Assembly (NCBI GenBank): GCA_964016885.1
Contig: OZ024742.1
Location: forward strand, 325,376,001 to 325,440,000
From: Eledone cirrhosa
Taxonomy: Eukaryota
Reading direction: 5' to 3'
DNA length: 64,000 bases
Numbering within the stretch: position 1 is the first letter of the stretch; every line of letters starts with the position of its first letter. Shown in pieces: positions 4,993-64,000 of this stretch. The translations under genes and the position numbers were made by a program. The notes beneath the pieces are model-generated. The model saw nothing but the letters and a program-made list of their open reading frames with translations, did not search any database and was not told the DNA's origin.

Positions 4993-5453
4993 GAATATAA
5001 CGAAGGAAGTGTGGTAAGGAACCAGGTGGACCATAACGCACCAGAATACTCGATACTATGGGTAGTAGAGTGGGTAATAGGAAAAGAGTCAGGAACCCGA
5101 CAGCTGAGCTCCGACTGTTTCGAAAGTTATCTCTGAACTGAGTTCGTATCTAGCTCTCAAAACGGCCGGAGCTCAGCCGTCGGGGTTCTGAATCTTTTCA
5201 TATATATATAAGTATGTATATGCGTGTGAGTAAGTGTGCGTGTTTGTATATATATATATATATGTGTGTGTGTGCGTGTGTATAGAAAAGAAAATCTCGC
5301 TCTACATGGCTGAATACAATAAATGTAATCTGAGTTTTTCGAATATTAATAATAACATTCGATTCGTTTGCAATTTTGCAAACAAACCTCAATTTTATAG
5401 CCATGTCAGTAGAATGAACACTTCCTTCTTGCTCTTATGTTGGCATGGGAACA

Positions 5454-5502
5454 GAACTACAGACACTAATGTTTCTGGTATCACTTTTCATCAGTACAGC
5501 TC
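5454..5502 (-). ncRNA. Minimal type I hammerhead ribozyme candidate
   Basis: gagctgta CTGATGA aaagtgatacca GAAA cattagtg TC tgtagttc. 8-bp stem I with G-U pairs; stem II degenerate. Confidence 0.7.
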
Positions 5503-5820
5503 ACTGTTCACCTGGCAAACGAATCGAATGTTATTATTAATATTCGAAAAACTCAGATTACATTTATTGTATTCAGCCATGTAGAGCGAAATTTTCTTTT
5601 TTATTTGAATATGGCAAAGCCGGCCATTTATCTCTCGTATACAGGAAACTGACTGGCCAGTCTGCTGATATGCAAATCTGGCTGATCAGTGGATCTGCTA
5701 ATATGCAGATCTGACTGATCAGCCAGTCTGCTAATATGCTAATCAGGCTGATCAATCACTGTGTAATTTTGAAAATAGCATATATTTTCACTAGCTCTGA
5801 CAGTTTGGCAGGTGAACAGT

Positions 5821-5870
5821 GAGCTGTACTGATGAAGGGTGATACCTAGAAACATTAGTGTCTGTAGTTC
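5821..5870 (+). ncRNA. Minimal type I hammerhead ribozyme candidate
   Basis: gagctgta CTGATGA ag-ggt-gat-acc-ta GAAA ca-ttag-tg TC tgtagttc. GUC cleavage triplet. Confidence 0.78.
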
Positions 5871-6002
5871 TGTTCCCATTCCAACATAAGTACAACAATG
5901 AAGGGTTCATTCTCCTGACATGGCTCTAAAATTGAGGCTTGTTTGCAAAATTGCAAACGAATCGAATGTTATTATTAATATTCGAATAACTCAGATTACA
6001 TT

Positions 6003-6107
<105 letters not shown>

Positions 6108-6470
6108 GTATAGGATTATCCTAGATGTAGTAATGGTTAATTACTACACTGGATATGGGGATATGGTTGACGTACGGTGAGAGGTTACTCTACGAGTTAT
6201 GGAAGAATTGTTGAAGAAACTTAGTTCCTGATCCTTCTGTATACTGGAGTGTATATAAAGAATGTATAATAACAGGTAGACATCATAAAAAGGTAATTTA
6301 TTCCGTGTGCTTACAAATGTTTCCACGGTTGTACTACAGCCTATTTATGCTATGTGCAAATTTACAACTATTTGCAGAACTCAAATATCCATTACTACAT
6401 CTAGGATAATCCTATACCTAATAATCGCCTCCTACACAGTTGAGCAACCACACCGACATACGGCATTAAT

Positions 6471-8773
6471 ATGGAAAGGCATCATATAGGTATGTCACTT
6501 AAAAACATACCTATACCTAACAAAAGGGAATATATTCTTAATATGATTCAACTTAATAACGACTTCATTCGGCGTGTACGATGGAAGGCTTTCCATTTCG
6601 ATAAGGGACACGCCAGTCACTCGTCTGAATCATATGGTTTTAAATCATGTAAAATCCCACCCATAATCCTCCATATCGATGCTTTCGAACAAGATTTAAT
6701 GAAAACGACCATGAACATTAAGTTCAACAGACATAGAAATAATGAGCTGCAGAACAACATGAAAGCACTACTCCAAAGACTGCAAAATACCAATGGAATT
6801 GGTGAGAAAGCTGACAAGACCTCTAACGTGTATACCATGGATATCGATACGTACAATAACTTCATACGCAACGAACTACACAAAAAATATAGAAAAACAA
6901 ATGAAACTACGCTAGCAAATATTAACAACGAGGCATTCAAAGTGGTGAAGAATCTCAACATAGACGATAGAACCGAGCCAATTATACCCGCTACCCCCAC
7001 CTTTAACCCGAAGGACCATAAGGTAAATTTTGACTCTAACCCTAAGATTAGACTTATATGCCCTTCTAAATCAGGCATAGGAAAAATTAGCAAATATATA
7101 CTTGACTCAAGTGAAAAAGAAAATTGAAATTAAATTATGGGGCAACACTAGCGAAGCAATTCGCAGGTTTAATAACGTTAAGAATAACAATAAATCTAAG
7201 TTTATACAATTTGACATAGACGAATACTACTCTTCCATCTCACCAAGCACTTTACGTAAGGCCCTATCGTTTGCTAAGGTCAATTCCGACCTAACGGAGG
7301 ACGAAATTAATATTATTCTCGAGGCTAGAAAAACTATTATTAAGATTGATAACTGCTACTGGGAACGTAAGGACAGACCCACAAACTTCGACATTACCAT
7401 GGGTTCCAACGACTCAGCGGAGGTCACGGATCTTGTGGGAATTTACATAGCCCACATACTACATAGTAAATTTAGTAATTTACAGGGGGGATATACAGAG
7501 ATGACGGGCTCTTATTAGTTAATAATTTGAATAACCAAAATCTTGAAAGGCTACGGAAAAATATTAGAAAATCTTTTAGTGAACTGGGTCTAAAAATAAC
7601 ATACGAATACAATCTTAAAGTAGTAAACTTTCTGGACGTAACTCTTAATTTAAATACCGGACAGATACGACCCTTCCACAAGATGAATGAGAACCTTACG
7701 TATATTAACTTTAACTCAAACCACCCACTCTCCATGATCAAATCGGTTCCCCGGAGTATTTCTCTTAGAATCTCTCGCCTATCGTCTAACTCTGATATTT
7801 TTACTAAACACGCTGAATACTATAATAATGCATTAAGGAATGCCGACCACCGGGATACAATAGAATACATTGATAGGAATCTCCATAAGACACATAATTC
7901 TACACGAAATCAAGGAATACGTAACCGAGGGACTAAAATACAAGCGCACACACACAGTACCACCAGACATACTAATAATAGAAAATCACCACCAAATAAA
8001 TCACGTTGTAGAAAGTATATCTGGTATAATCCTATTTTGAATGCCTCGATTAGTACAAAACTATCTCTTTCATTCTTTAAGTTAATCAACAAACATTTCC
8101 CTAGTTCCCATAAATACAGCAACATTCTGAACTCTAAAGCTATTAGACTATCATACTCCACGACACCAAACCTTGAAGCATACATAAAAAAACTTAACTT
8201 AAAGCAATTAAATAACACTACAAAACAAAATATTTTAGTAACAGATGGGTAGAACGTAATATCTGCCTCCCAACCACTAAATGGGAGACGGGTATTACAC
8301 AATCCACCTGTACTGCTATCACAACCTATCCATGGTATACCCTCTACCCACAACAAAGAATGTAACTGCCATCTACCTGAAAGATGTCCATTGAAGAATG
8401 AATGCCTAAAGTCCAACATTGTTTACCAATGCACGGTTGAAACGAACGACCAGAAATGCTATTATATCGGATCTACCACCACCTCGTTTAAATCTCGCTG
8501 GTACCGTCATCGATTCTCAATCACCGTTTTGTGACCACGCTCGCCAACAAGACCTGGCAACTCCGTGAACGCAACCAAGAGTTCACCTTAAAATGGGATA
8601 TACTTTCCAGCGCAGGTGCATATCGGAGTGTATTGAAGTACTGTAGGTTATGTAACCTTGAACTATTTTACATATTAAAATCCAAAAACAAACTACTTAA
8701 CGATAGAATTGAACGATCATTATACTGCAACCACAAACTAAAAGCTAAATTATCTCACTATAAAATAACTTAA
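6471..8773 (+). pseudogene. Penelope-like RT + GIY-YIG endonuclease ORF, frameshifted
   Basis: Motifs NIPIP, ADKT, KDHKVNF..PKIRLICPSKS, FIQFDI.EYYSSI, FDITMGS.DSAE, G-YRDD (frameshifted near 7490), VNFLDVTLNL, CNC-x5-C, NIVY..YYIGST and CRLCNLE. Split over at least 4 frames, with a TAG at 8250. Confidence 0.92.
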
Positions 8774-9272
8774 CATTCGAACCCGTAACTATAACATCGC
8801 TTTCTAGCTAACCATCTTCTCTTCCCCCACATTACAAGACAATACACTGCTTATCACTATAAATGGTAACTCAGTGCAATTCGCAGATTACTACTACGAA
8901 CTCAAAGTTCACTCACCACATAGACTTCGTCTGTCCCCTCTCTATCTCTCTCTCTCTCTACATCCATTACACACTCTCTCTCTCGCCTTTGGCCTACCTC
9001 CCTCCCTCTCCACATCTATGAACCTGCCTTCTGGCGCAATAAATAATTCCGACCTTAACTATCAACGCATGTCTCCAAAAGTAACCAGTATAATAAAACC
9101 CCTACCATAACATTTTGATTAAGATATCTACAAACCACTCTCTCCTATTTCTCCAACCCCTGCATATATTTCTCTCTCTATCCCTCTCCCCTACTTTTCT
9201 CTCTTCCTTTTCTACTCTATCTTCTCCAACAACCCCACTTAAGGGTATTTACATTGTACATTTTAACCATTC

Positions 9273-9509
<237 letters not shown>

Positions 9510-11601: not shown

Positions 11602-12925
<1,324 letters not shown>

Positions 12926-12932
12926 ATATATA

Positions 12933-12996
<64 letters not shown>

Positions 12997-13110
12997 AAGT
13001 ATATGGGAATATACCGTATGTTTAATTAAAAACATTTTGAAGACCAGACGCTATCGCTTTTAAAGTAGTGACTATGTCACTTACTTCTTTTCGGCGAAAG
13101 AAGGGAAAGA

Positions 13111-13151
13111 AACTAACAGTATGTTTCACGCTGTTGGCGACCATCAGAGCC
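13111..13151 (-). ncRNA. Hammerhead candidate, ~310-nt family (core mutated to CTGATGG)
   Basis: ggct CTGATGG tcgc-caaca-gcgt GAAA catactg TT agtt. Confidence 0.55.
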
Positions 13152-13417
13152 ACGCACTCCTTGCTTAAGCCGAAAATAATAGGAGCTGGATTCTTATAGA
13201 ATTCTAGTAACAATCAGGAGCTGATTATACAGAGCGATTTTCGGTCCAGCAAAAATCAGGTATTAGGATTGGTGCTCTGAAATAGCGATGTATACATGAA
13301 TGTATGTATAGTATATTTGGCCATATACTGTATGTTTAATTAAAAACATTTTCAAGACCATACGCTATCTGTTTTAACGTAGTGACTTACTTCTTTTCGA
13401 CGAAAGAAGCGAGAGAC

Positions 13418-13457
13418 GCTAACAGTCTGTTTCACGTTGTTGGCGATCATCAGAGCC
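13418..13457 (-). ncRNA. Hammerhead candidate, ~310-nt family
   Basis: ggct CTGATGA tcgccaacaacgt GAAA cagactg TT agc. Confidence 0.62.
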
Positions 13458-13837
13458 ACTCACTCCCCGCTTTCGCCGAACATTATAGAAGCTGGATTCT
13501 TATAGAATTCCAGTAATGATCAGGAGCTGATTATACAGAGCGATTGCCGGTCCAGAAAAAACTAGGTATTAGGATTGGGGCTCTGAAATAGCGAAAAGAA
13601 ATAAGTGACATAGTCACTACTTGAAACCGGATAGCGTTTGGTCTTCAAAATGTTCTTAATTAAACATACCGTATATTGCCAAATATTCTATAGATACATT
13701 CATGTATACATCGCTATTTCAGAGCACCAATCCTAATACCTAATTTTTGCTGGACCGGCAATCGCTCTGTATAATCAGCTCCTGGTTATTACTGGAATTC
13801 TATAAGAATCCAGTTTCTATAATTTTCGGCGAAAGCA

Positions 13838-13892
13838 GGGAGTGCGTGGCTCTGATTATAGCCAACAGCGTGAAACTGTTAGCTTCTCTCCC
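13838..13892 (+). ncRNA. Hammerhead candidate, ~310-nt family (core mutated to CTGATTA)
   Basis: gggag-tgcgt-ggct CTGATTA tagccaacagcgt GAAA ctg TT agct-tct-ctccc. Extended stem I with an internal loop. Confidence 0.55.
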
Positions 13893-14061
13893 TTCTTTTG
13901 ACGAAAAGAAGTAAGTGACAATGTCACTACTTTAAAACCGATAGCGTATGGTCTTCAACATTTTTTTAATTAAACATACGGCATATTGCCATACTATACA
14001 AACATTCAAGTATACATCGCAATTTCAGAGCACCAATCCTAATAAATATATATATATTTAG

Positions 14062-14147
<86 letters not shown>

Positions 14148-15450: not shown

Positions 15451-16051
15451 TCTCCTTAATATCCTTACTTTGTATATAAACAAGTACATAGATAACAGGT
15501 GAAAGGGAGATCAAGGAGCAAAGAAGAGCAAAGAGAGCAAGGATAAAAGGAGACCATTCAGAGCATTGGTAAAAGGTAAGCAGGGAGAGCAATAAGAAAA
15601 GGAGAGTAAAGATAGAAAAGAGGGGAATGAGAGGAAAAGTGGAGAGGGAAGGGAGGAGAGGGAGAGCAGCAATACTAATACTGGACCGCCAATCGCTCTG
15701 TATAATAAGCTCCTGATTATTACTGGAATTCTATAAGAATCCAATTTTTATAATTTTCGGCGGAGGCAAGGGAGTGTGTGGTTTTGCTAAACGCCAAACA
15801 GGGAAAAACAGACTGTCAATGACTCTCCCTTTGTTTTCGACGAAAATAAGTAAATTACATAGTCACTATTTTAAACCTAATAGTGAATGGTCTTCTAAAT
15901 ATTTTTAATTAAACATACAGTATATTGCCAAATATACTATACATACATTCATGTATGTATAGTATACTGGAGCATCGTGAAATGAAGTGATTTTGCTCAA
16001 GAACACAACACGCAACCCAGGAATCGAACCCACGACATGATGATCCAACCA

Positions 16052-16158
<107 letters not shown>

Positions 16159-16218
16159 AAGAGCGAGAGAGAAAGAGAGAGAGAGATACATATATCTATA
16201 TATCTTGATAATTATTTT

Positions 16219-16402
16219 AGGATTGGCAGTATCAGTAGAGGGTCGGTCGCCATGCTTTCCAGCATAGTTACGTCCCTTTACGATCCGAGTTCAAATCCCC
16301 CCGAGGTTGACTTTGCCTTTCATCCTTACGGGGTCGATAAAATAAAATACCAGTAATGCACTGGGTAATTGCTGGCCTTGTGCCTAAAGTAGAAACAATT
16401 AT
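16219..16402 (+). mobile_element. tRNA-derived SINE family A (Nin-domain-like core)
   Basis: A-box-like TGGCAGTATCAGTAGAG, B-box GAGTTCAAATCCC, core TTTGCCTTTCATCCTTACGGGGTCGATAAAATAAAATACCAG. Confidence 0.85.
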
Positions 16403-17614
16403 TTTATTCTTTTCAATAAGATTCTCTGTACGTATATCTCGTATATTAATTTGATCATGTTTTTAATTTCTCATATGTCATGCCTTTACCCAAGTAATGG
16501 AAATGCAGACAAATGATAGATACGCAGCAGAGTTTATTCAAATGTAGTTACAAATAACTGAAACTTTCTTTCAGAATTTAGTGAATGATTTCCATGACTT
16601 TTACACCCCAAGATGGCAAATTTTCATATGTTGAATAATTTTTACCATAACAATCTATTATCTTTTTTCTTGGTCTATTATGTATGAGGAATATCAAGCA
16701 TTCAGTATTTCCATTGCGATTTGCTCCATCATTTCATGTTGCTTTAAAAGGTTACGCTATATTTTCTCACGTGTTTCGTATTTGCTTTAAGCCACTCCAG
16801 TATATCTACACAGTGAGAGATATATTTATTTCATATACTTCATAATGCGGTAGTATATGTCATAAAAGTACATGATGTTGCTAACGTACCCTTTCGTACG
16901 TCAGTGTCAATTTTATATACGAACATGAGTGTGACTCATTGGTATAGTTAGAGCGTCGTATAAAATATGTGATGCGTTTGGCTATTACTCGTTATGCATT
17001 CTGAGTATAAATACCGTCGTGATCAAGTTTGTATTTTATCCTTCCGTTGATAAAATAAGAAAGAATCAAACATTGCTGCCGATTTCATCGGCATTCCACT
17101 CACTTCATAATGTTCTTCTGCCTAAATAAGAAACTATTATTGCCGATTAGTTTGTGTAGGCTCTGTTCCGGTCTCATCATGCAGATCAATGAGCAGAGTC
17201 ATTTTCAGAGAAGACCAAGTGTTTCTGCATTTTTCGAAGGAAATATTTACCAGTAAAACATAATCAAATGTTATCATGTACCACGTTCAGCACGCCACAG
17301 CTAGGGAGAGATTTTATATTGCATTAATTTCTATCAAGTGAAGTGCAAACACGTGCAATACCACGTTATTTCATTACTGTTTTAATTTGCCTGACCCCCT
17401 CTCTCTCCATTTCTTCATTGTACTTTTGCAAACATCGTATAAATATATGGTATTGTGTGGTCGCGTATCTCCTCCGAGAGTCGCAGGTGCATCGTCTTGA
17501 CTTACGCGTACTGCGTTTCTTGGGCAATTTAACCTAGGCGGAGCCAATCTTGCTCAAGGCCTGTGTACAACAGATATCTTCCAGAGAATGATAGAAAGTA
17601 AAAAAGAGGAAGCG

Positions 17615-18248: not shown

Positions 18249-20133
18249 GGTGGTGAGAGACTCCTGCAACATCTTCACTCTTTGTTTGGCAGGATATGGG
18301 CTAATGAAACCGTACCTGAGGAGTGGAGAGATGCAGTAATGGTGGTCCTGTAGAAGGGAAAGGGTAACAGGAACGATTGTGGGAACTACAGATGTATATC
18401 ATTGCTTTCTGTCGTAGGGACAGTTTTATGTAGGGTGCTTCTGGACCGTCTGCTGACACACATTGCAGATTGTGTTCTTCCTGAAAGTCAATCTGGTTTT
18501 CGTGCTGAATGCGGCACTACTGATATGATCTCAGCTAGACAGCTCCAAGAGAAGTGCATGGAACAAGGCTTGGATCTGTATCAGGTTTTTGTCGATCTGA
18601 CAAAAGCTTTCGATACTGTTAACAGAGATGCATTATGGAAGGTTCTCCAGAAACTTGGTTGCCCTGATAAGTTCCTTGCTTTAGTTAGGTCTTTCCATGA
18701 CGACATGAAGGCTTGGGTTAATGTCGGGGGTAACATGTCGGAGCCTATCTCAGTAAAAAATGGAGTGAAACAGGGGGATATTCCAGCACCGACCCTGTTT
18801 GCCATATACTTCGCAATGGTTTTCTGTATTGTATTCAGGAATTGCGAGCATGGTGTTTACATCCGATATCGAACCTCAGGCAGCATATTTAACATCAGGC
18901 GCTTTGCTGCGAAGACAAAAGTATTTACATCAATCATAAGAGACCTTTTGTATGCAGATGATTGCGATCTTGTAGCGCACACAGAGAGTGATATGCAGCA
19001 CATTTTGAATGCATTTTCTGAAGCTTGCACTGCCCTAGGTCTGACAGTCTGTCTCAAGAAAACCGTCGTCATGTACCAACCTGCCCATGGTAAGCAGTAC
19101 ACTGAACCAAACAACTATGTGTATGGCAAACGACTTGGAGTGGTTGATCAGTTTGTCTACCTGGGAAGCACTGTCAATCGATACAGCAACCTTGACAGTG
19201 AAATCTCACTTAGGATTAGGAAAGCAAGTTATGCTTTCGGAAAGCTAGAAAGGCGACTCTGGGGTCGGCGAAACATATGCAGGAGGACAAAGGTAAAGGT
19301 GTACAGGGCATGTGTGCTCCCTTGTCTTCTTTATGCCTGCGAGACCTGGGTCACATATCGACACCACCTTAAGCAATTGGAGCGTTTCCATCAGATGTGT
19401 CTCAGACGGATCCATGGCGTTCACTGGAGCGACCACATCAGTGATGTCGAGATTTTGGAAAGATCTATGTGTGACAGTATAGAAGCTCTTGTGCTTAAGC
19501 AACGACTCCGTTGGAGTGGCCACCTTGCCAGGATGAAGGATTCTAGAATACCAAAACAACTCTTTTATGGAGAGTTGGTTAAAGGAAAACGACCGCCACA
19601 TAAACCAAAAATGAGGTATAAGGATTCCTTGAAAGCCTCTCTGAAAGACGCTAACATCTCTGCTGATACATGGGAGAATATTGCTGCTGATCGTAATACA
19701 TGGAGAAAGACTGTATATGAGGGAAAAGTTGCCTTTGAGGCATCTCGAATCGCATACGAGAAAGTAAAGCGGGTTGTCAGGAAGGGCATTGCTGTTGCAC
19801 TTCCAGACGGCGAGGGTCCTCCTATGGTGCTGACATGCAGCGTATGTGCGAGACTCTGCCTAAGCAAAGCTGGACTCGAAAGTCATCTTCGCAGTCATAA
19901 AGTAAGACCAGTGGTTGACTACCAGGCTGCTGTTGGAGATGCTACTCATCATGCTTGCCAAACATGTGGTAGAGAATGTAAATCAGCAGGAGGGCTCAAG
20001 CGACATGCAAAAGTACACGAACTTCAACCACAGCCGACTATTCCCAGTAAATGTTTTGGTTGCCGACTCTGTGCAAGACATTTTAGATCATTGGCTGGGC
20101 TAAAAAAGCCACATTCGATCGCATCGCTGTTAG
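18249..20133 (+). pseudogene. RTE ORF: RT plus three C-terminal C2H2 zinc fingers
   Basis: In frame from 18249 (GGERLLQHL...) with one TAG at ~18351. A +1 A at ~20102-20107 shifts the true end LKSHIRSHRC* (TAG 20131-20133). The listed 716-aa ORF tail is microsatellite read-through. Confidence 0.9.
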
Positions 20134-20480: not shown

Positions 20481-21395
20481 TATGTATATAGTGTGTGTCT
20501 GTATGTAAAGTTCAGACATTTCATATGTGTCAACGCTACGACAAGAATGTGAAGAGTAGGAATTGGAGAAAAAAGTATCGTTACGAAAAGAGAATGTTTG
20601 CATCTACGCCAAAAGTTGTTATGATGATATTAATAGTGAAGATGTAAGTATACATGAATAAAAGCTATATCTCTCCTATTGCTACTGTGTAATTTCACGT
20701 TGATATTTATTCAATATTTCATATGTATACATATAATTTGTATTTTACTATTTGAAACTTTAAATCATACAAGCTGTTAAGTTAACGCAAATCCTCTTTA
20801 TCCAAAAAACTGCACGTATTAATATTTACCGTGAACATATAACGATACTTTCACACAACCTGATATCCATACATAATTCAGAAACTTTATAAAGTAGCCA
20901 ATTTTTTGAAATATAATATACTGTTCCTCTTCCGTTTATATGCTAATTTGTCGATCAAATAAATGTGTACCGCGACTTGCATATCAATTGAGAGATGTAG
21001 AGAACATACACGAATTGGAAATGGAAATTTCTACTAAGTCGCTGTCTAGCACGAGATTAAATAACTTGTCTAATCCAATTGCTTATCACAGTAAATTATG
21101 AATCTAATGTATCAATTCATGTAAGAATTACTGAAGTCAATGTACGCATGAGGAGTACAGGCAGTATGAAGTAAGTATCTATACAGCTATACACTAATAC
21201 ACGACAACAGGCAACATAACCAGCAATTGTCTGTCCGTTTTCAATATAACTCATTCAAAATGAAGATTATATGAGATTAAATAAATGATTAAGAGGAATA
21301 GATGACGCTGTTATCGTAATAATTTGATAAAACCTTAGCAAAATATCTATATATAACGCAGTCTTTTTTTATGTTTGTGCAATGTTTGAATCATT

Positions 21396-21586
21396 AAATA
21401 ATTGTTTCTACTTTAGGCACAAGGCCAGCAATTACCCAGTACATTACTGGTACTTTATTTTATCGACCCCGAAAGGATGAAAGGCAAAGTTAACCTCAGC
21501 GGGATTTGAACTCAAACCATAAAGGGACGTAACTATGCTAGAAAGCATGGCGTCCAACCCTCTACCGATACTGCCAATTCACCGCC
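21396..21586 (-). mobile_element. SINE family A
   Basis: Reverse complement of the 16219 copy. Confidence 0.85.
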
Positions 21587-21701
21587 ATTAAATAATGCCA
21601 CTTCGTATTTAGCAGAAGCTCCGCTTGCTTCAAATGTTCTTGTCAACCTGGGCGTTTATTGTACCAGAGGTTGATTAAATGGTAATAAATAGCACAGTAT
21701 T

Positions 21702-21798: not shown

Positions 21799-21980
21799 AT
21801 ATAAAATCAAAGAGGGTTTGGTAAGATACCAGGTGGACCATACTTCGGGTAGTAGAGAGGGTATTATCAAAAGATTCAGGACTCCGACGGCTGAGCTCCG
21901 ACCATTTCGACAGTTCGGATCTAGCTGTCGAAACTGCCGGAGCTCAGCCGTCGGGGTCCTGAATATTTTCATACACACAC

Positions 21981-22061: not shown

Positions 22062-22440
22062 TTGCGAGCTTTTCTGATATGAAATCGTGTGTCGAAACAA
22101 ATATTGTTATACTTGGGGAGGGACATATTGTTGTAATAATATTGCCAGAATTAATAACAGAACACACTCACTGTTTGGTTGGTTTTCGCTTCTGTATCTT
22201 TTATATCAGTTAATTTATTCAGTCCGCAATGTTTACCGTTGACTGACCAACGGTCAAAAATATAGATATAATATAGACACAAACACATATATATAGTCTA
22301 ACAAAGTTCTTTCGTTGCACATCCGCAACATCATCAGAGGTGCTATTATGTTTCCTCCTGCTGTATTGTATGCCTATGCCAACTTTATTTAATCTGTTTA
22401 TTTATTTATTTATTTATTTATTTTTGTCTTCTTCTCTGCG
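22058..22440. repeat. Dispersed family G; also 2263-2990 (split by TA tract and SINE), 22921-23300, 30165-30306, 55600-55947
   Basis: Shared ATATTGTTATACTTGGGGAGGG..TTGCCA.. and a CTGA(T/A)GA-hairpin-GAAA motif on the opposite strand. Confidence 0.75.
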
Positions 22441-23422: not shown

Positions 23423-23598
23423 ACTTGTTTCTACTTTTGGCACACGGCCAACAATTATCCAGTACATTACTGGTACTTTATTTTATCGATCCCCGTAAGG
23501 ATGAAAGGCAAAGTTAACCTCGGCGGGATTTGAACTCATACCATAAAGGGCCGTAACTCTATCCTGCAAAGCGTGGCGTCTGACCCTCTACCGATACT
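23423..23598 (-). mobile_element. SINE family A
   Basis: Reverse complement of the family consensus. Confidence 0.85.
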
Positions 23599-30299: not shown

Positions 30300-30350
<51 letters not shown>

Positions 30351-30440
30351 TAATATATATGAGTAATATATATGATGAAACAGATCCCAACACATCTGTA
30401 TTTATATTTAGAAGTGAAGCTTATCAATTGTATCTGGATG

Positions 30441-30508
30441 TTTACTGAGGAGAGCAGTGGCATGATATTCCTACACTTATACATTATTCATCTCGAAACA
30501 TGTTTGGA
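30441..30508 (+). ncRNA. Hammerhead candidate, monomer 1 of 524-nt tandem
   Basis: ttta CTGAGGA gag..ctc GAAA catg TT tgga. Palindromic stem III CATG. Confidence 0.7.
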
Positions 30509-30964
30509 TTTTAAGGTTTAAATTTATCTACGGAACAGGTTTGATTTTGAAATTTAAATATGTATAAACATCATAGCCATTTGGCAGCGCAGCTAGTTTT
30601 TGTCGATTTATTATTTTAAATCGATGTGGACGAACTGTGGTAAAATAATTAATATTCTTCATTCTGGCTAATTTTCTTTTGCAATATAAATACAGATGTG
30701 TTGGTATCTGTTTCATCATATATATTACTCATATATATTACTTTTATACACGGTTCAGGAATATTTCCTTTTGAGCTAATTCCATTGTAAAAGAATTCAT
30801 TACACTTAATATAACTGCTCCTGGTTGAGCTGAAATTCGCCTCATATATACGACTGTTATTTCTAGCAGTACGGTTATGAGACTAGCTTGAATCTGTGAA
30901 CCCATGTGCGTCACACAGTCTTTAAAATTATTTAGAAGTAAAGCTTATCAATTGTCTCTGGATG

Positions 30965-31032
30965 TTTACTGAGGAGAGCAGTGGCATGATATTCCTACAC
31001 TTATACATTATTCATCTCGAAACATGTTTGGA
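30965..31032 (+). ncRNA. Hammerhead candidate, monomer 2 of 524-nt tandem
   Basis: Same motif exactly 524 nt downstream. Confidence 0.7.
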
Positions 31033-31332
31033 TTTTAAGGTTTAAACTTATCTACGGAACAGGTTTGATTTTGAAATTTAAATATGTATAAACATCATAG
31101 CCATTTGGCAGCGCAGCTAGTTTTTGTCGATTTATTATTTTAAATCGATGTGGACGAACTGTGGTAAAATAATTAATATTCTTCATTCTGGCTAATTTTC
31201 TTTTGCAATATAAATACAGATGTGTTGGTATCTGTTTCATCATATATATTACTCATATATATTACTTTTATACACGGCTCAGGAATATTTCCTTTTGAGC
31301 TAATTCCATTGTAAAAGAATTCATTACACTTA

Positions 31333-31365
<33 letters not shown>

Positions 31366-37400: not shown

Positions 37401-37420
37401 CTCTCTTTTTATCATTATTT

Positions 37421-37730
37421 GTGGATTGGCAGTATCGGTAGAGGGTCGGATGCCATGCTTTGAAGCATAGAGTTACCTCCCTGTATGATCTGAGTTCAAA
37501 TCCCGCCGAGGTTAACTTTGCCTTTCATCCTTCCGGGGTCGATAGAATAAAGTACCAGTAATGCACTGGGTAATTGCTGGCCTTGTGCCAAAGGTAGAAA
37601 CAATTATTTATTTTTTTCAAATCCCGCCGAGGTTTACTTTGCCTTTCATCCTTACGGGGTCGATAGAATAAAGTACCAGTAATACACTGGGGTAATTGGT
37701 GGCCTTGTGCCAAAAGTAGAAACAATTATT
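37421..37730 (+). mobile_element. SINE family A with tandem duplication of its 3' two-thirds
   Basis: Full copy at 37421-37607, then 37616-37730 repeats from TTCAAATCCCGCCGAGG to AGAAACAATTATT. Confidence 0.85.
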
Positions 37731-38893
37731 TATATTTTCCATAGCTTTTCCCCTAATTTTCTCTTTATTAATAATTGTTTATTAATATTTCAACATTGTA
37801 TACGTTTCTTCCACAATATAGTTCGTATATCTGAACAAATCTAGAAAATATTTTCCTATGATTATTATATCATCTTTGAAATTGGGTACAAATTTACGAT
37901 TATGTAGTCAAATCTGAAGTCAGAAAATCATGATGTATATGGATATATAATAGAGATCCAGAAAATAGAGAAAATATTTTGATAGAAGCCTCATAAATAG
38001 TTTTAGATATAGTAAATTGTTATAGAAATAAAATGTTTAGTCCCAATTTTGTAAACCATTTTCAATAGATGTGATTTTATGATAGAAATCACATTTACGT
38101 ATTTGCATATAATATAGATAGCCTTTGAACATAATATTTGATTTATCATTGTAATCAGATAGAATTTTCACAACTGGCGTCATTGCTGACATTATGAATG
38201 CTATCGTTATTGTCGTGTACAGGTATGAATAAGTGAACAAATTTTAAAAAGGAATAACGTATTAGTCTGTAATTCTACTTTCCTCCAACATAATTAACCT
38301 TCTTTATTAGAATGTTCATTCAGTCGACAGAAAAGTTAAATGCAAACACATAAATACCTCGATATCCACGACATAAATTCAATCATTTGCATTAAATGAT
38401 TTGCTTTGATGCACACGACCAGAAACCAATGCCGTTGTAGTATAACTAGAGTGCTCGGATCGGCTCTTCTTTGTCTGACCTGTATATACCGCCACAAGAA
38501 TAAAAAATATACTAAATACAGACACAATATAACGAGCTATGTGACTTGACACATACAATCCAACTAATATTATAAACAACAACATGGCAGATATCTACAC
38601 ATTATTTTCATCGATTGTATGAATGCACAATATAACCGAGGCAATGAGTTTAAGAATTATACCTAGTCATTTAAACAACAACAAGCAAGTTATACCTCAG
38701 ATCAACAGGTCCGAGAATATTACAAAAGCAGTAACACTTATTCCTTAAATGCCATGTCATATAAGGGCATGGGCTCATAACTACTGCTGGAGTCGTCGGG
38801 GATTAGATGTGGCATTTTAACCTGGTGAAGCCCACCTCTTTCATTGGCGGAACACAGAATTAGAGAGTGAGAGAGAGACAGAGACAGAGCAGA

Positions 38894-39989: not shown

Positions 39990-40770
39990 ACACCTGTTGT
40001 TTGCCGAACTAATATTATATCATAACCATTGTTAAGATTGAAAGGCGTCATTTCAGTCTTCATGTCTTTTAAATGTAGGTACATGTTAGCTCCTTCTGTG
40101 TCCATGCGCTTCAACATTACCTTTCCCTGCTTAATACACACATTTTACATAAATATGTGCGTCGTTGTTTGGAATTTTTTAAACTGACGTTTAATTATTT
40201 CAAAAGGAAAATTCATAAATTTTCAATTCAAAATAATAATTCATATAAATATGAACACAAGTACATTATGTAAGAGATTTTAAAACTGTTTCCTAGGCAA
40301 TAGCAATTATCATTATTATTTTAAAAAGATGGGCGGTGGATTGGCAGTATCGGTAGAGGGTCGGACGCTATGCTTTGCAGCAAAGAGTTACGGCCCTTTA
40401 TGATCTGAGTTCAAATCCCGCCGAGGTTAACTTTGCTTTTCATCCTTACGGGGTCGATAAAATAAAGTACCAGTAATACACTGGAAATTGCTGGCCTTGT
40501 GCCTAACGTAGAAACAATTATTATTTTTAAAAAAATGTTTTTACGTCAGGACATACATTTATAAATACTGAAATTGATATTATCAAAATATTTGACCATG
40601 TATGCGTGCTGTAAAATTAGGCTATTGTTATTACTAAATATTATGACGAAAGTCTGAAGCGGTACCGCACTCAAAACAGCGCGTTGTATTACACACCGAC
40701 GAATCTTTATGTCCTGCGTTACACAACCCATCTCAGAACTCAAATCCTGACTTGCAACATTTCCTGGTGG
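39990..40770 (-). mobile_element. Highly decayed CR1/L2-group LINE remnant, interrupted by a SINE
   Basis: 40546-40743 reads RCVIQRAVLS..FVIIFSN..LQHAYMVKYFDNI (decayed GV.QG.VLSP / YADD). 40040-40120 reads MLKRM..ANMYLHLKDM..FNL (like LERVQRRATKM..L..L). Confidence 0.45.
40331..40524 (+). mobile_element. SINE family A
   Basis: Full-length match to the other copies. Confidence 0.85.
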
Positions 40771-44164: not shown

Positions 44165-44424
44165 AGAAAAACCACAGATGTGAGAAAAACCACAGACCCT
44201 CCATCTCAACTCTACTTTTGAAAAGCATAAGAACTGCGAAACCGGTAAAGGAACCAAATAAATATATTATTTATTTAAAAAATAAGATTCCAGTTGTATT
44301 TTCGATTTCATCTTTTTTTCTTTATACTTTCACTCGTGTAGGACACCTCGGTTATTTTTCATTCTGTAAAAAAAACAACAACTCACTTTCCAATATATAT
44401 ATATATATATATACTATATATATA

Positions 44425-44823: not shown

Positions 44824-44827
<4 letters not shown>

Positions 44828-45014
44828 AACAAATAAGACCCCGACGGCTGAGCTCAAGCCGTTTCGACGGCTAATTCCGTACAGAATTAGCCGTCGAAAC
44901 GGCTTGAGCTCAGCCGTCGGGGTCTTATTTGCTCCTATTACCCACTCTACTAACCTAAGTATTGAGTAATTTGGTGCGTTATGGTCCACCTGGTTCCTTA
45001 CCACATCTCCTTCG

Positions 45015-45016
<2 letters not shown>
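44824..45016. repeat. Fold-back family C (HHR 3'-half); also 4998-5199, 21805-21971, 55190-55253, 60021-60080
   Basis: ~54-bp near-perfect arms containing GAAA cggc-ttgagctca-gccg TC gggg. Shared tail ..TGGTCCACCTGGTTCCTTACCACA.. Confidence 0.8.
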
Positions 45017-45209: not shown

Positions 45210-45250
45210 CGATGTACTAGTTTCAAGCTTGTTAGCTATCGTCAGCACCG
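45210..45250 (-). ncRNA. Minimal type I hammerhead ribozyme candidate (cleanest in the window)
   Basis: cggtg CTGACGA t-agct-aaca-agct-t GAAA ctag TA catcg. 5-bp stem I, palindromic CTAG stem III, GUA triplet. Confidence 0.82.
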
Positions 45251-45748: not shown

Positions 45749-45831
45749 TATTTTCCGTTGTGTTGTAATATAAATATTACACACAGTAGATTATCAGCTC
45801 ACGTAGAGTTTGCTCGACGGTTCCAGTTGTA

Positions 45832-47874
45832 GTTCCAAACAGCAAATTACAGAAAGATATAAAAAAACTACTGGACGACCTTAAAAACACCAAAGGAATT
45901 GTAGTAAAAGCGGACAAAACATCAAACCTGTACACTATGGATTGCACTACATACAACAACTTCATTCGAAAAGAATTACATAAAAAATATAGAAAAACGA
46001 GTGAAGTAACCCTTAAGCACATCAATGATGAGGCATGCGAAATAGTGAAAAATCTCGGAATCGAAGATAGGACAGGACCACTCTTACCGGCGGTACCCAC
46101 CTTCAATCTTAAGGACCACAAGGTAAACTTTGATAATGACCCTAAAATTAGATTAATCTGCCCCTCTAAATCAGATATAGGTAAAATAAGCAAATATATC
46201 TTAGATAGAATCATCCCCCAAATTAAGGCTAAGGTTAACATTAAACTCTGGGGGAAGACCCAGGAAGCAATAAGATGGTTTAATAGCATTAGCAATAAGA
46301 ATAAATCTAAGTTTATCCAGTTTGATATCGATGAATATTACTCATCGATATCACCTGAAACTTTGAATAGAGCCATTAAGTTTGCTAAGGATAACTCTGA
46401 CCTTACAAACGATGAAATTAAGATTATATTAGAAGCTAGGAAAACTATAGTCAAATTTGAGAACAGTTATTGGGTACGTAAAGATAGACCCTCTAACTTT
46501 GACATAACAATGGGCTCTAACGATTCGGCGGAAATAACTGATATTGTGGGGTTATTTATCGCCTTTAGACTCCAGGAAAAATTCAGCAATCTCCACGGCG
46601 GAATATACCGCGACGATGTTCTCCTCCTAGCTAAAAACCTTAATAACCAAAAACAAGAAAAACTACGCAAAGATATAAGAAAACTACTACTCGAAATAGG
46701 ACTAACTATAACATATGAATACAACCTTAAAGTAGTTAACTTCCTGGATGTCACACCCAATTTAAACTCTGGTTTGATTAAACCGTTTCATAAATTGAAT
46801 GAAAATCTCAAATACGTAAATGTTGGGTCTAACCACCCCTTCTCTATAATTAAATCTATCCCTAAAAATATTTCCCTTAGAATCTCGGGTCTATCTTCTA
46901 ACATACAAGTATTTAAGGAACACGCCGAGTACTACGATAACGCCCTTAGTAAAGCAGGCTACCTCAACAAAATAGAGTACATAGATGGGAACAATCAAAA
47001 CACCCAAAATAAATCCCACATAGGTAGATATAATAACACAACACCAAACCACACTTACTACCATAGTATGCACACCAGTAAACCAACAAACAAAACTAAT
47101 AGAAAGCGATGCAAAGAGTACTTATGGTATAACCCCGAATACAATAGCTCCATTAGTACAAATTTACCAGTACTCTTCTTTAAAATAATTAAAAGACATT
47201 TTCCCACATCACACAAATACCACAAAATCCTAAACCCTACCACTATAAGACTGTCATACTCTACAGCGTTAAACCTTGAACAACACATAAAAAAGATCAA
47301 TACTAGAAGGTTAAACGAAAACACTAAGAACTTAAGTACAAAGAACACAAAAAAAACAGTAGACAATACACTACAGAACATAAATAAACCACACCTAAGT
47401 TCGTCCGCAATACTACTCCAGAGAAAACCCAACGTACACAACTGTAACTGCACCTATCCTGACAACTGCCCCCTCGGCAATAACTGCCTGGAAAAAAATA
47501 TTATTTATAAGTGTACCATTAAATCCGGAGGCAACGAGTGGTATTACGTGGGATCAACGGCAACAACGTTTAAATCTCGATTGTATAGGCATTCTTACTC
47601 AATAAAACACCAGAGCCAAAGAAATGTAACAACTCTAGCAGAAAAAGCTTGGACGCTGAGGGATAGCGATCAAAAGTTTACCCTAAAAAGGGAAAAATTA
47701 GCTAAAACCCAAAGCTTTTCCAGGAGCCAAAATTTCTGCAAATTGTGTAATCTTGAGATTTATTACATAATCACACACAAGAAGAAACTGCTGAATAACA
47801 GAATTGAACGAACATTATTCTGCCGTCACAGAACTAAAACCCTTTTTTCCCACTACAAGCCGAATATTACATAA
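45832..47874 (+). CDS. Penelope-like RT/GIY-YIG polyprotein (uninterrupted, N-terminus missing)
   Basis: The 645-aa ORF at 45937-47874 is open upstream to ~45832 and colinear with copy 1. Motifs: GGIYRDD, VNFLDV, CNCTYPDNC, NIIYKC..WYYVGST, CKLCNLE, CRH. Confidence 0.9.
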   Translation, partial: VPNSKLQKDIKKLLDDLKNTKGIVVKADKTSNLYTMDCTTYNNFIRKELHKKYRKTSEVTLKHINDEACEIVKNLGIEDRTGPLLPAVPTFNLKDHKVNFDNDPKIRLICPSKSDIGKISKYILDRIIPQIKAKVNIKLWGKTQEAIRWFNSISNKNKSKFIQFDIDEYYSSISPETLNRAIKFAKDNSDLTNDEIKIILEARKTIVKFENSYWVRKDRPSNFDITMGSNDSAEITDIVGLFIAFRLQEKFSNLHGGIYRDDVLLLAKNLNNQKQEKLRKDIRKLLLEIGLTITYEYNLKVVNFLDVTPNLNSGLIKPFHKLNENLKYVNVGSNHPFSIIKSIPKNISLRISGLSSNIQVFKEHAEYYDNALSKAGYLNKIEYIDGNNQNTQNKSHIGRYNNTTPNHTYYHSMHTSKPTNKTNRKRCKEYLWYNPEYNSSISTNLPVLFFKIIKRHFPTSHKYHKILNPTTIRLSYSTALNLEQHIKKINTRRLNENTKNLSTKNTKKTVDNTLQNINKPHLSSSAILLQRKPNVHNCNCTYPDNCPLGNNCLEKNIIYKCTIKSGGNEWYYVGSTATTFKSRLYRHSYSIKHQSQRNVTTLAEKAWTLRDSDQKFTLKREKLAKTQSFSRSQNFCKLCNLEIYYIITHKKKLLNNRIERTLFCRHRTKTLFSHYKPNIT

Positions 47875-48190
47875 AAGAGGGACATCCCCCAACTATATAA
47901 ACCTTAATCTAGTTAGAAAAATATAAAAACAATCTCTTCTCAACATATATTAATAACCTTAAATTACCATACTAATAATGAAAAGATATGCTGATGAGAA
48001 TAGGTACCAAATATGCGATAATGAATGTGTCTAAAAACGTCCATAAGTATGTATATATATGTGAAAATGTATATAAATAAGTAAATATATATATATGTTT
48101 GATGTGTATAGTTAGATGTAAGTGTATTCATGTATTAAAGTGCTTATATATATATATATATGTATATGTGTGTATATGTATGTATGTGTA

Positions 48191-48307
<117 letters not shown>

Positions 48308-48856
48308 GTGTATATGGATGTGTATGTATGTGTATGTGTGTACACATGGACTAGAGTATGTATGTATATATGTGTGTGTCTATACGTGAGTATATAAAGA
48401 TAAGTTGAGTATGAAAATGTATACACATGAGCGCGTATGTATGTACATAAATACATGTGTGTATATATGTGTATGCATGTGTATATATATGTAAGTATGA
48501 ATATGTGAATTGTGTGTATATGTATTTTGTAGAGGTGTGCAAATATATTTGTGTGTGAATGCGTGGGTGAAAGGATATGTACACTTGAAAGAAAAATTTA
48601 AGTCTGAATGTTAATTAAGTGCAAACACAAAACCAACCACGCATATCTTCACTATCTCTAATCCTTCTATAGATTTAGAAAAATAACCAATAATATATTC
48701 TATAAAAAATGTCAAAACAACAGATGGGAATCTAATTACTCACTGCCACCAAGAATTCTCACTGCTATCGAAAAACCACTCCTTCAACTATTCTTCTAAC
48801 AACTTCACCCCTCCCTCCTAATATTCTCTATAAAAACTAAATAGGTCCTCAGTAAT

Positions 48857-48913
48857 ATTATTCTGATGAAATGACAGTAAATAATAACATTGAAATATTG
48901 AATGTCTGCATAA
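48857..48913 (+). ncRNA. Hammerhead-like motif in Penelope copy 2 pLTR
   Basis: attatt CTGATGA aatg-acagtaaataataa-catt GAAA tat-tga-atg TC tgcataa. Core, stem II and stem III are present; stem I is weak. Confidence 0.55.
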
Positions 48914-49008
48914 CTAAAAGTTTGTAGATAGCTGTTTTAGGTTATGTAACTGTTATAGAAACACGTGTCAATAAATTCCTTTCAACTAAACTGTATCCAT
49001 TCAAATCT

Positions 49009-49044
<36 letters not shown>

Positions 49045-49597: not shown

Positions 49598-49642
<45 letters not shown>

Positions 49643-49986
49643 AAAAAAGATGAAATTGAAAATGCAACTGGAGTCTTATTTAAAAAAAATATATATATAT
49701 TTATTTGGTTCCTTTACAGGTTTCGCAGTTCTTCTGCTTTTCAAAAGTAGAGTTGAGATGGATTGAAAAGCAGAAGAACTGCGAAACCGGTAAAGGAACC
49801 AAATAAATATATATATTTTTAAAAAAATAAGACTCCAGTTGCATTTTCGATTTCATCTTTTTTTCTTTATACTTTCACTGTTGTAGGACACCTCGGTTAT
49901 TTTTCATTTTGTAAAAAAACCTCACTTTCTAATATATATATATATTTTTTTAGTCTTTGGATTTTAGTCTTCAAATTTATTATTAT

Positions 49987-50623: not shown

Positions 50624-51080
50624 TATGTATGTGTGTCTATATTTATATATACACACATATATACACATGTATGCATAGATGTAACCCAACCCTGGTCACG
50701 AATGTCCACAGTTTTTGCACCTAGAAAGTTCCCCTCTATGGCACAGCTCCCATCAATTTGTTTTGTGGAAGATCAGTAATCACTCATGTATGTCAGTCTG
50801 CCTTTTTAGAAAGTTACTTTCTTATAATTAACTCTATATAAATTTACTGTTTCATTTTTGATATTTTGTTTTTTTAAATCACATTATTTTGTATATTTAA
50901 ATGGCTTTCATCTCATATCTCAAGGCTAATTGAACTGACGTCATCATATCGAAGTCAGAGTTAAACATGTATAAATGTATAAATGAATGTATGTATTTGG
51001 AAATATAGAAGACCATACGCTATCGGTTTTAAAGTAGTGATTATGTAACTTACTTCTTTTCGGCGAAAGTAGGGACAGAA

Positions 51081-51190
51081 ACGAACAGTCTGTTTTACGC
51101 TGGTAGGCGATCATCAGAGCCACGTACCCTCTCCTTCTGTCGTGCGTGGCTCTGATGATCGCCAACCAGCGTGAAATAGACAGTTCGATT
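51081..51190. ncRNA. Divergent (back-to-back) pair of ~310-nt-family hammerhead candidates
   Basis: Minus 51081-51122: ggct CTGATGA tcgc..gcgt AAAA cagactg TT. Plus 51148-51190: ggct CTGATGA tcgc-caacca-gcgt GAAA tagacag TT. Confidence 0.55.
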
Positions 51191-51353
51191 CTCTCCCTTC
51201 TTCCGATGAAAAGAAGTATGTGATAAAGTCACTACTTTAACATCAATAGCGCATAGTCTTCTAAATCTTGTTAATTAAACATACGGTATATTTCTTAATA
51301 TACTATACATACATTGATGTATACATCGCTAATTCAGAGCAGTAATCCTAATA

Positions 51354-51426
<73 letters not shown>

Positions 51427-51620
51427 CCAACAGTATGAAACAGATATCTGTCAGCTTATCTCCCTTTGTTTGTTGAAAAAGGAAGTAAGTGATATAGTCA
51501 CTACTTTAAAACAATAGCATAAGGTCTTCAAAATGTTTTAATTAACATACAGTATATTACCAAATACACGATATATACATTGATATATATGTTTATATAC
51601 AGTTCTACTTCTACATGCCT

Positions 51621-52531: not shown

Positions 52532-52573
<42 letters not shown>

Positions 52574-52578
<5 letters not shown>

Positions 52579-52968
52579 AAAAAAAGATGAAATCGAAAAT
52601 GCAACTGGAGTCTTATTTTTTTTTTAAATATATATATTTATTTGGTTCCTTTACCGGTTTCTGCTTTTCAAAAGTAGAGTTGAGATGGAGGGTCTGTGGT
52701 TTTTCTCACATGTGAGAAAAAACACAGACCCTCCATCTCTACTCTACTTTTGAAAAGCAGAAGAGCTGCGAAACCGGTGAAGGAACCAATTAAATATATA
52801 TATATTTTTTTAAATAAGTTTTTTGATTTCATCTTTTTTGATTTCATCTTTTTTGATTTCATCTTTTTTGACTTCATCTTTTTTGATTTCATTTGTTTTC
52901 TCTATACTTTCACTCGTGTAGGACACTTCGGTTATTTTTCATTTTGTAAAAAAACCTCACTTTCTAAT
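52574..52968. repeat. Fold-back family D (HHR 3'-half); also 44160-44394 and 49642-49932
   Basis: Arms meet at CTCACATGTGAG (~52710). The family has GC GAAA CCGG TA AAGGAACC AAATAAA (TG instead of TA in this copy). Internal 15-bp tandem (TTTTTGATTTCATCT)n. Confidence 0.8.
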
Positions 52969-55095: not shown

Positions 55096-55251
55096 AAATA
55101 AAGGATTATGAGTTCATGCAATTGACTTATGTTTCGTCACTATATATATATATGTATATATATATTATTATATATATATATATATATATAACGGAGGAAA
55201 TGTGGTAAGGAACCAGGTGGACCATAACGCACCAAAGTACTCAATACTTAG

Positions 55252-55295
<44 letters not shown>

Positions 55296-63200: not shown

Positions 63201-64000
63201 TGAAGCCTATCTAAGTCAAGCACACAGATCACGAATTTGTGGTCCGTGTAGCTGACTATCTTGAATTGTGGACAGCCTATGCTAGACCTATCTATTTCCT
63301 TACAACTCTACTTAGATATGATCTGGATGACCCAATGCGATTTGTCCAAGTCCACAATGGCACATTCGGGAAATCCAATCGGTACCTGCCAGACAGTTCA
63401 AAACGCCTGAGCAGGATGGTGAGGCTCTTGCACCCTCCTCCCCTATCCGTTAATCCCACACAGTCCCAGCGTGCCTCTAAGATCCCGTTCCAGTCGCCCA
63501 CTAACACTAAAGAGCGGGAGTTCCAAGAAAGGTCTCCAGACGCCGGAAGAAATCAGGCCGCCCTGCTCCTGTCGGGGCATAGACGGCCACTAGCCTGAAA
63601 GCTTTCCCGTCTCCTCTGGGTACGTCCAGCACCACCAACTTACCCTCTGGGTCCAGGAAGATGGCCCGTATGGCGAGATCCTCTCCGAAAAAGCACAGCA
63701 ACTCCTCCCTCCCCGATGCTTCGGAGATTCTGGTCTCGCTGATGGCCACTACATCTATGTTTAGTGACCTGAGGTCGTTGAGTAGGTGGCCCTGCTTCCA
63801 TGACGACCCCAAGCCACGCGCATTTATGCTGCCTATTCTGAGTGAGGTCATGTTGAAAAGGAGTGGAAAAGATGGGAAAGACCACTTACCTTACTTCTCG
63901 TAGGGGAAGGACGGCTTTTCCATCCTTTTCACTGCTTGTGGCCTCCTCAGGAAGGATGTCCTTATGAATCCTCCTGGAGAGTGCTTGTCGGAAGTCTCCG
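60209..64000 (-). mobile_element. Tx1/L1-clade LINE, continues past the window end
   Basis: Minus-strand frameshifted ORF2: APE start (LRIGSINARGL, VAVYAP, GDWN), GYWKLN, SPGLDGLPYE, FRPITLLN, LDQSKAFD, RQGCPLS, AYADDV, GGLGMP, CPRC..ETVLHA..QC. AATAAA and a (TTA)n tail at 60209-60262. Confidence 0.95.
60499..63851 (-). pseudogene. Tx1/L1 ORF2 (APE endonuclease-RT-zinc knuckle), multiple frameshifts
   Basis: ORF-track pieces 63507-63851, 63292-63507, 62990-63232, 61946-62941, 61356-61976 and 60499-61437 are colinear domains. Confidence 0.92.

Follow-up and report, generated by a model that had tools for sequence, protein, structure and literature searches.

The closest described animal non-LTR retrozymes are Rtz_353 of the axolotl (HHR_Amex2) and the 350-390-bp repeats of mussels (PMC7229834). 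These protein-free elements carry a type I hammerhead in a 150-450-bp tandem unit with GC <50% and a self-paired predicted circle, RNA circles are known for them, and the same 2020 paper names Penelope-like elements (PLEs) as candidate mobilisers of animal retrozymes. A preprint (bioRxiv 10.64898/2026.07.22.740005) adds co-occurrence and sequence kinship of PLEs and retrozymes, and calls the mechanism unresolved. PLE insertions themselves are partial tandems truncated at the 5' end, with a 5' copy in inverted orientation and, at one end, a tail of 30-40 bp (PMC8557442; PMC3846280), and Hydra-clade PLEs, with one Octopus family among them, target (TA)n (Craig et al. 2021, PMC8557442). In vitro, PLE protein cleaves and extends both strands, uses a mainly uncleaved RNA template and begins reverse transcription at two internal sites bounding the tail (PMC11167929). 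We found no description of cephalopod retrozymes in the literature covered, with most subscription journals, Repbase and the supplements of PMC7229834 and of the preprint outside its scope; the main text of the 2026 Octopus vulgaris repeat annotation does not contain 'hammerhead', 'ribozyme' or 'retrozyme', and the text of the preprint does not contain 'tail', 'initiation', 'mollus' or 'octopus'. A PLE origin of such retrozymes has already been proposed; the locus described here adds an insertion footprint and a likely Hydra-clade link, in a host group that is probably new.

The window, i.e. the whole stretch of Eledone cirrhosa DNA that was analysed (64,000 nucleotides), is AT-rich, microsatellite-dense animal DNA with LINE-type RT frames and two Penelope-like frames. 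Using BLAST, alignment and a profile search, we delimited a repeat family of six arms at three places, with no further arms in the window. The search profile, built from the family copies themselves, recovered eight pieces at E<=1e-38 and nothing else below E 0.009. With a unit period of 306-314 nt, these pieces bear out the ~310-nt hammerhead repeat family described in the initial annotation. The eight pieces, each >100 nt, yield a 314-nt consensus of 38% GC. Their pairwise divergence of 9-30% (9-16% between units of the first locus, 16-30% for all other pairs) rules out an assembly duplicate. The family is real and its copies are decayed. The whole picture consists of six arms and four insertion events in one 64-kb window, as follows.

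12924..12993: left (TA)n target tract
12988..13594, minus strand: arm A, ribozyme-sense, 2.0 tandem units, 3' end facing the left (TA)n tract, tail absent
13592..13594: inversion junction of arms A and B, a 3-nt microhomology (CGA) common to the 5' ends of both arms
13592..14044, plus strand: arm B, 1.47 units, head-to-head with arm A, 3' end facing the right (TA)n tract
14006..14044, plus strand: 39-nt tail at the outer end of arm B, absent from arm A (optional tail of PLE type)
14042..14144: right (TA)n target tract
15663..15966 (unit part to 15956), plus strand: copy C, 0.96 unit, dead ribozyme core
50975..51136, minus strand: arm D1 of a second fold-back, 0.61 unit, short 3' end, G12 changed to A
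51142..51353, plus strand: arm D2 of the second fold-back, 0.68 unit, same terminal base as arm B, then (CT)n(TA)n
51424..51589, plus strand: copy E, a separate 5'-truncated insertion, 0.51 unit, without the CTGATGA box

The pairs A/B and D1/D2 are head-to-head fold-backs, and C and E are single insertions. At the first locus, the earlier description of two tandem units facing about 1.5 inverted ones agrees with the 2.0 units from 13594 to 12988 and the 1.47 units from 13592 to 14044, and the single unit placed at ~15675-15960 is a near-complete copy at 15663-15956. Fold-backs had been claimed at all three loci; two stand, whereas the third locus holds only the single copy C, and the fold-back given as 50985-51590 shrinks to 50975-51353, with 51424-51589 a separate insertion of 0.5 unit. 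Copy C has an 11-nt deletion at its unit junction and a 34-nt palindrome (15933-15966) at its end, and copy E sits behind the (CT)n(TA)n tract in the orientation of arm D2 (51142-51353). The three ribozymes of A/B have a 5-nt loop II, D1 and D2 have a 6-nt loop and a post-triplet change, and copies C and E have the GTC cleavage triplet in common. As these diagnostic states sort the arms by insertion, each fold-back seems to record a single event with a single source.

A complete type I hammerhead can be read in the consensus, with CTGATGA, GAAA, GGCT/AGCT and GGGAG/CTCCC. The order is GGCT, CTGATGA, T, helix II (3 bp, loop CAACA), T, GAAA, helix III (9 nt), T and AGCT. It has the core CUGANGA / GAAA / UH and three helices, helix I being open, and helix I runs past an internal loop into GGGAG/CTCCC and then through 12 more pairs. 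The bipartite stem I proposed earlier (GGGAG/CTCCC plus GGCT/AGCT) is therefore present in the consensus. The full set of type I features is found in none of the seven single copies, three of which are listed here.

13409..13467, minus strand: hammerhead A1, best preserved, both boxes intact, helix II and proximal helix I with a single mismatch apiece
13103..13161, minus strand: hammerhead A2, core A9 changed to G
13838..13892, plus strand: hammerhead B1, core G8 changed to T, 4-nt deletion in helix III

The ribozyme of arm D2 has both core boxes intact and damaged helices. The initial annotation had made its reading depend on conservation of the two boxes; both are in the consensus, but individually CTGATGA is intact in three of the six copies covering that box and GAAA in five of seven, and only two of six have both. 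The cleavage triplet is GUU in five copies and GUC in two. A strict hammerhead descriptor passed none of the seven family copies, seven other sites in the window and no site in 30 shuffles. Searched with Rfam at the gathering score, the whole window gave no hammerhead match, the other descriptor-passing sites being likewise missed; at E<=10, the two fold-back loci gave 21 and 21 weak matches with no hammerhead family among them. Sub-threshold matches to miRNA families were dismissed, their sources being fold-backs and microsatellites. Across the seven copies, 87.5% of 144 cells are paired, versus 43-58% in slid controls. Covariation among these decayed copies is marginal, with 42 of 500 shuffles reaching the paired-cell count and 38 of 500 the compensatory count. 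The active-like fold of the consensus lies 6 kcal/mol above the minimum-energy fold. Helix III alone forms no hairpin and has a predicted self-duplex of -8.7 kcal/mol; self-duplexing of helix III is expected of hammerheads acting as dimers (PMC4209133). Reading helix I as six positions, one of them a U-U mismatch, gives UC:GUGC as the internal loop; with loop 2 as CAACA or a 6-nt form, this compares with a UCCA:GUAC internal loop and a CAAAUA loop in the Schistosoma tertiary motif (PMC2632901). The registers were compared by eye, and the motif sought was a 5' U in loop 1, a 3' A in loop 2 and an extrahelical pyrimidine. Because the loop bases stand in the register of that motif, a putative tertiary contact between loop I and loop II is plausible. 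A donor-like hexamer, GTAAGT, lies 30 nt past the cleavage site and could be chance in 314 nt.

Apart from the ribozyme, the unit has the properties expected of an animal non-LTR retrozyme. The initial annotation had called it retrozyme-type, and this is upheld by the ~310-nt unit itself, which holds a type I hammerhead, stands in tandem (2.0 and 1.47 units), has no protein (longest stop-free frame 63 codons) and no evident LTR structure, is 38% GC and has a self-paired predicted circle. The predicted unit circle is strongly folded (-84.6 kcal/mol, z -6.25, 0 of 200 shuffles as stable) and its antisense strand folds about as well (z -5.73), whereas single copies have z from +1.65 to -3.35 and only copy C is clearly below its shuffles. 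By the sequence-level definition of PMC7229834, the unit fits an animal non-LTR retrozyme. The U-U mismatch at the helix II base recurs in HHR_Amex2 (PMC7229834). Unlike the retrozymes of that study, the copies here have at most two tandem units, are decayed, stand head-to-head with a one-sided tail and have a helix III of 9 nt; the word 'inverted' is absent from its main text. RNA circles are part of its evidence, and the circle of the family here is a predicted one. The preprint 10.64898/2026.07.22.740005 takes two consecutive units with complete ribozymes as its criterion for an 'active' retrozyme, and here the sole tandem pair has a core change in A2. These genomic copies are dead as retrozymes. 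A simple pattern scan of the unit found no Pol III A/B boxes, and a tRNA-type SINE and a coding gene were rejected as identities of the unit. A 20-nt scan matched three loci in prokaryotic genomes (63-72% GC), where only the probe matches and the family profile scores 4.6-7.1 bits; we take these matches as chance.

We examined where the arms begin and end on the unit. The 3' ends lie at consensus ~275, 283, 284, 287, 314 and 314, all six in 39 of 314 nt (275 and the second 314 were set by eye, the aligner having run on into microsatellite). Against a uniform expectation this clustering has P 1.6e-4 for six arms and 0.008 for four insertion events; if ends must follow a TA-like word, P is 0.026 and 0.10, respectively. 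The weaker clustering under the latter null means that part of the 3'-end signal could be pairing with the target, and fixed internal initiation is not separated by it from priming by target-template microhomology. Under either null, the insertion ends are not free permutations. The 5' ends, by contrast, lie at consensus 287, 168, 297, 95, 104 and 124, spanning 195 nt (P 0.55); the nearest is 21 nt from the cleavage site and none is at it. Two of the six 5' ends (13594 and 15663) fall inside the 3'-end zone, by chance or possibly from a preference for whole laps, which gives arm A ~2.0 units and copy C ~1.0. The different breakpoints noted initially are thus a property of the 5' ends only. The circular template read from variable start points does not follow, as the starts of reverse transcription, at the 3' ends, form a cluster, and what varies is ordinary truncation at the 5' end. 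Invariant endpoints had been named as the observation that would count against that reading, and half of this is seen, in the clustered 3' ends, while the 5' ends vary.

The arrangement of the arms resembles that of PLE insertions. In both fold-backs the arms stand head-to-head, and the outer end of one arm extends further than that of the other (by 39 nt and 27 nt); arms B and D2, at two independent loci, have the identical terminal base. The tract at the end of arms A and B is (TA)n, and that at the end of D2 is (CT)n(TA)n; three of the six 3' ends (C, D1 and E) do not adjoin (TA)n. No target-site duplication could be called, the microsatellite flanks hiding any. The tail of arm B was typed as PLE-type by comparison with PMC8557442 and PMC11167929. 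The insertions combine 5' truncation and fixed 3' ends, the latter weaker under the TA-word null, with an inverted 5'-truncated copy and a tail at one end. The unequal head-to-head arms and (TA)n flanks therefore match the published insertion signature of PLEs, which the initial annotation missed in the fold-backs. With Hydra-clade PLEs (Craig et al. 2021, PMC8557442) the family has in common (TA)n targeting, inverted 5'-truncated arms, the tail and the ribozyme style, and differs in having no RT-EN frame, a self-contained repeat and a much longer helix I. Similarly, the Poseidon PLE of Anolis (PAc; Frangieh et al. 2024, PMC11167929) has two adjacent RT starts, a 30-40-nt tail, AT-rich targets and extension of both strands, and ribozyme cleavage is dispensable for its insertion. 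PAc is likened to the family by these insertion features alone and not by sequence; unlike the unit, it is autonomous, belongs to another clade and starts RT inside its reading frame, in an AC-rich stem-loop (PMC11167929).

On this evidence, we consider it probable that the family is a ~310-nt non-autonomous hammerhead retrozyme, which probably arose from the pseudo-LTR of a Hydra-clade PLE and was mobilised in trans by PLE RT/GIY-YIG endonuclease. Tandem copies would be transcribed, and an intact ancestral hammerhead could cut the RNA to unit lengths, probably best as a dimer via the palindromic helix III; the units may then circularise. Judging by PLE biochemistry, the PLE protein would cut both strands of an AT-rich or (TA)n target and prime cDNA from each side, with synthesis starting internally at one of two sites 27-39 nt apart, in an AT-rich block 130-170 nt downstream of the cleavage site. 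Copying, as seen in the sequence, crosses the cleavage site without a scar for 0.5-2 units before a variable stop. The two cDNA ends would be joined by microhomology, giving the observed product of head-to-head arms with a tail on one side only, after which the copies decay, as is also seen. Self-priming on an antisense template, the other proposed route to head-to-head junctions (PMC3846280), is a possible alternative for the junctions.

To relate the unit to a particular PLE clade, we compared three unusual traits of its hammerhead: T faces T at the helix II base, helix III is near-palindromic over 9 nt, and the cleavage site has a T. Of the 25 Hydra-clade families in File S2 of PMC8557442, 14, 19 and 10, respectively, have these traits, and 8 of 25 have all three, as does none of the six other families of that table; the counts were made by eye, and many of the 25 are related Hydra families. 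Two PLEs of the Hydra type lie in the window.

6102..9387, plus strand: PLE1, Hydra-type, near full-length, RT-EN frame frameshifted (~6444-8770)
45790..49012, plus strand: PLE2, Hydra-type, 5'-truncated 694-codon frame and 3' region

The Hydra-clade diagnostics DKT, CxCx5C, CxxC and CxH are found in both frames and RWK in one; the PLE2 frame has 12 homologues at 32-38% identity, all 12 with the YRDD motif, and Pfam gave no family for four PLE frames. The clade assignment of the frames is one by motifs and by-eye comparison with the published alignment, with no tree. PLE1, a candidate relative of the driver, likewise bears an inverted 5' arm, which spans 6102-6391 and stops at (TA)n. The end of this arm lies ~16 nt before an acceptor-like CACAG that itself precedes the first ATG, and a branch-point-like CTAAT is close by; to connect the RT start of PLE1 with an intron would be speculation. 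The minus-strand segment 14148-15177 is a 5'-truncated copy of the PLE2 3' region (47854-49012, plus strand), 84-94% identical. It shares the (TA)n tract of arm B and holds an internal microsatellite and two CTGATGA boxes. Compared with the flanks of both PLEs, the unit gave five segments without significant similarity (2-99 of 100 shuffles score as high), and with the window's other ribozyme families included, none of 11 segments was clearly significant, the best being equalled by 2 of 100 shuffles and lying in AT-rich sequence. A 15/16 match at the PLE1 3' terminus is equalled at six unrelated places in the window, so that it is only a lead towards the driver PLE. Two 12-nt probes from the unit had no match among the Hydra sequences in the supplement of PMC8557442, and by eye the unit does not match the 3' end of Hydra-1_Obim (Octopus bimaculoides) given there. 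A frame with RT plus C-terminal GIY-YIG was looked for in the unit and not found, which makes the unit at most a non-autonomous derivative of a PLE. The same parent-parasite relation has been proposed for Xenopus retrozymes, which are related to PLE pseudo-LTRs (bioRxiv 10.64898/2026.07.22.740005); the Xenopus case rests on co-occurrence and sequence similarity among vertebrates, whereas the link here is insertion geometry and homology to a parent was not found.

The arms could instead be remnants of pseudo-LTRs, truncated and belonging to an autonomous Hydra-clade PLE family of which the window contains no full copy. In favour of this, the family is PLE-like in its arrangement, its tail, its target and the style of its ribozyme; the majority of PLE copies are truncated at the 5' end, and pairs of ribozymes on opposite strands, 100-700 bp apart, are described for PLEs (PMC4209133). 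However, the tail runs directly into the next unit at three junctions of the first locus, and in copy C with its 11-nt deletion, and none of the six arms has reading-frame sequence attached. The long distal helix I is also typical of retrozymes, most Hydra PLEs being listed with a helix I of 3-7 bp (PMC8557442). We therefore regard this explanation as improbable.

The preferred reading, a retrozyme mobilised by a PLE, leaves a choice of template. The cleavage site is crossed scarlessly by all six arms, twice by arm A, and the template must therefore have been longer than one unit. It would be an uncleaved tandem transcript or a circle, with a bare preference for the transcript. The circle stays in play because all six arms cross the cleavage site, and an uncleaved tandem transcript explains this crossing equally well. 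The four units at 12988-14044 diverge almost star-like (4.6-7.3% from the consensus), five of the six pairs sharing no variant, and such divergence fits a circle or a homogeneous array. The sole variant-sharing pair is formed by the outermost units of arms A and B, which have one CpG substitution and overlapping small deletions in common. These shared variants lean slightly towards a tandem transcript, but amount to a single CpG position and a single deletion of a slippage-prone kind.

A circle with fixed entry stays within our explanation; a separate one holds that a circular monomer RNA was entered at random, rolling-circle reverse transcription yielding circularly permuted copies. The crossing of the cleavage site by six arms (twice in arm A), the near star-like units, the well-folded predicted circle and the circularity of related retrozymes in vivo (PMC7229834) all speak for it. 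Yet the entry points are not random, the head-to-head arms and one-sided tail are left unexplained, and the variants shared by the outermost A/B units hint weakly at a template with two different units, and we think random entry unlikely, a shade more so than the pseudo-LTR pieces. An origin at the DNA level, by satellite-type tandem duplication and fold-back rearrangement or as a MITE-like element with the ribozyme a passenger, is very improbable, since outward fixed 3' ends, variable 5' ends and a one-sided tail recur across independent loci and other families and the inverted arms are unequal in length and overlapping in content, unlike terminal inverted repeats, even though unequal crossover has been proposed for local retrozyme expansion (preprint 10.64898/2026.07.22.740005) and the terminal palindrome of copy C could be a DNA template-switch product.

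As an object, the ~310-nt repeat is an expected kind of repeat, and its PLE footprint is the useful part. The family puts that footprint on a protein-free unit, and so bears on the enzyme and the template of animal retrozymes. Two-armed insertions, moreover, offer an internal template test in private variants common to in-register units of opposite arms. The layout of inverted arms, unequal ends and (TA)n is also seen in two other hammerhead families of the window. We tentatively raise the possibility, short of preferring it, of a guild of retrozymes (at least three families of such layout in 64 kb) that would record the PLE reaction, with two fixed internal RT starts, two-sided priming at (TA)n and uncleaved tandem templates. 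If this were true, animal retrozymes would be tied by mechanism to Hydra-clade PLEs as driver, and abundant circles would be a by-product, not the transposition intermediate assumed by the current retrozyme model.

The second hammerhead family (5282-6010) is a complex fold-back, in which the ribozyme at 5829 (plus strand) satisfies the strict descriptor, its triplet being GUC and its helix I having 8 pairs. The partner lies at 5494 (minus strand), and the outer 3' ends are ~32 nt apart, one of them at (TA)n. The third (30343-31337) is young: its two tandem units, of 524-nt period, agree at 99% of positions over 409 nt. Hammerheads at 30445 and 30969 pass the descriptor, an inverted 5' arm measures 66 nt, and (TA)n flanks the locus on either side. 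This third family is a better candidate for an active retrozyme than the ~310-nt family. A dispersed hammerhead family with a 6-bp helix II is found at 55697 (plus) and 23172 (minus), with related motifs at 22337 (minus) and 2879 (minus); two copies match at 94% identity across ~340 nt and stop at (TA)n. Further hammerhead-like motifs lie at 45245 (minus), 55045 (plus) and 57703 (plus), the last failing the descriptor; the one at 45245, just upstream of PLE2, likewise has two T's facing each other at the helix II base, and its 6-nt helix III is palindromic. Another (TA)n-flanked fold-back family (44175-44367, 49635-49931 and 52572-52966) has no descriptor-passing hammerhead, and a short family with a long internal palindrome has a fixed end at (TA)n (4995-5203, 21840-21973, 44826-45015 and 55191-55255). 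An abundant SINE-like family of ~190 nt (16205-16416, 21393-21590, 23425-23598, 37408-37741, 40332-40528 and others) is of a kind that we take to be typical of octopus genomes. Lastly, 18354-20100 (plus) is an RTE-like LINE frame with C-terminal zinc fingers, whose best match is at 58% with no close named relative, and 60499-63890 (minus) is a broken L1/Tx1-like element, for which the only named one of two matches is from Argonauta hians, at 58%.
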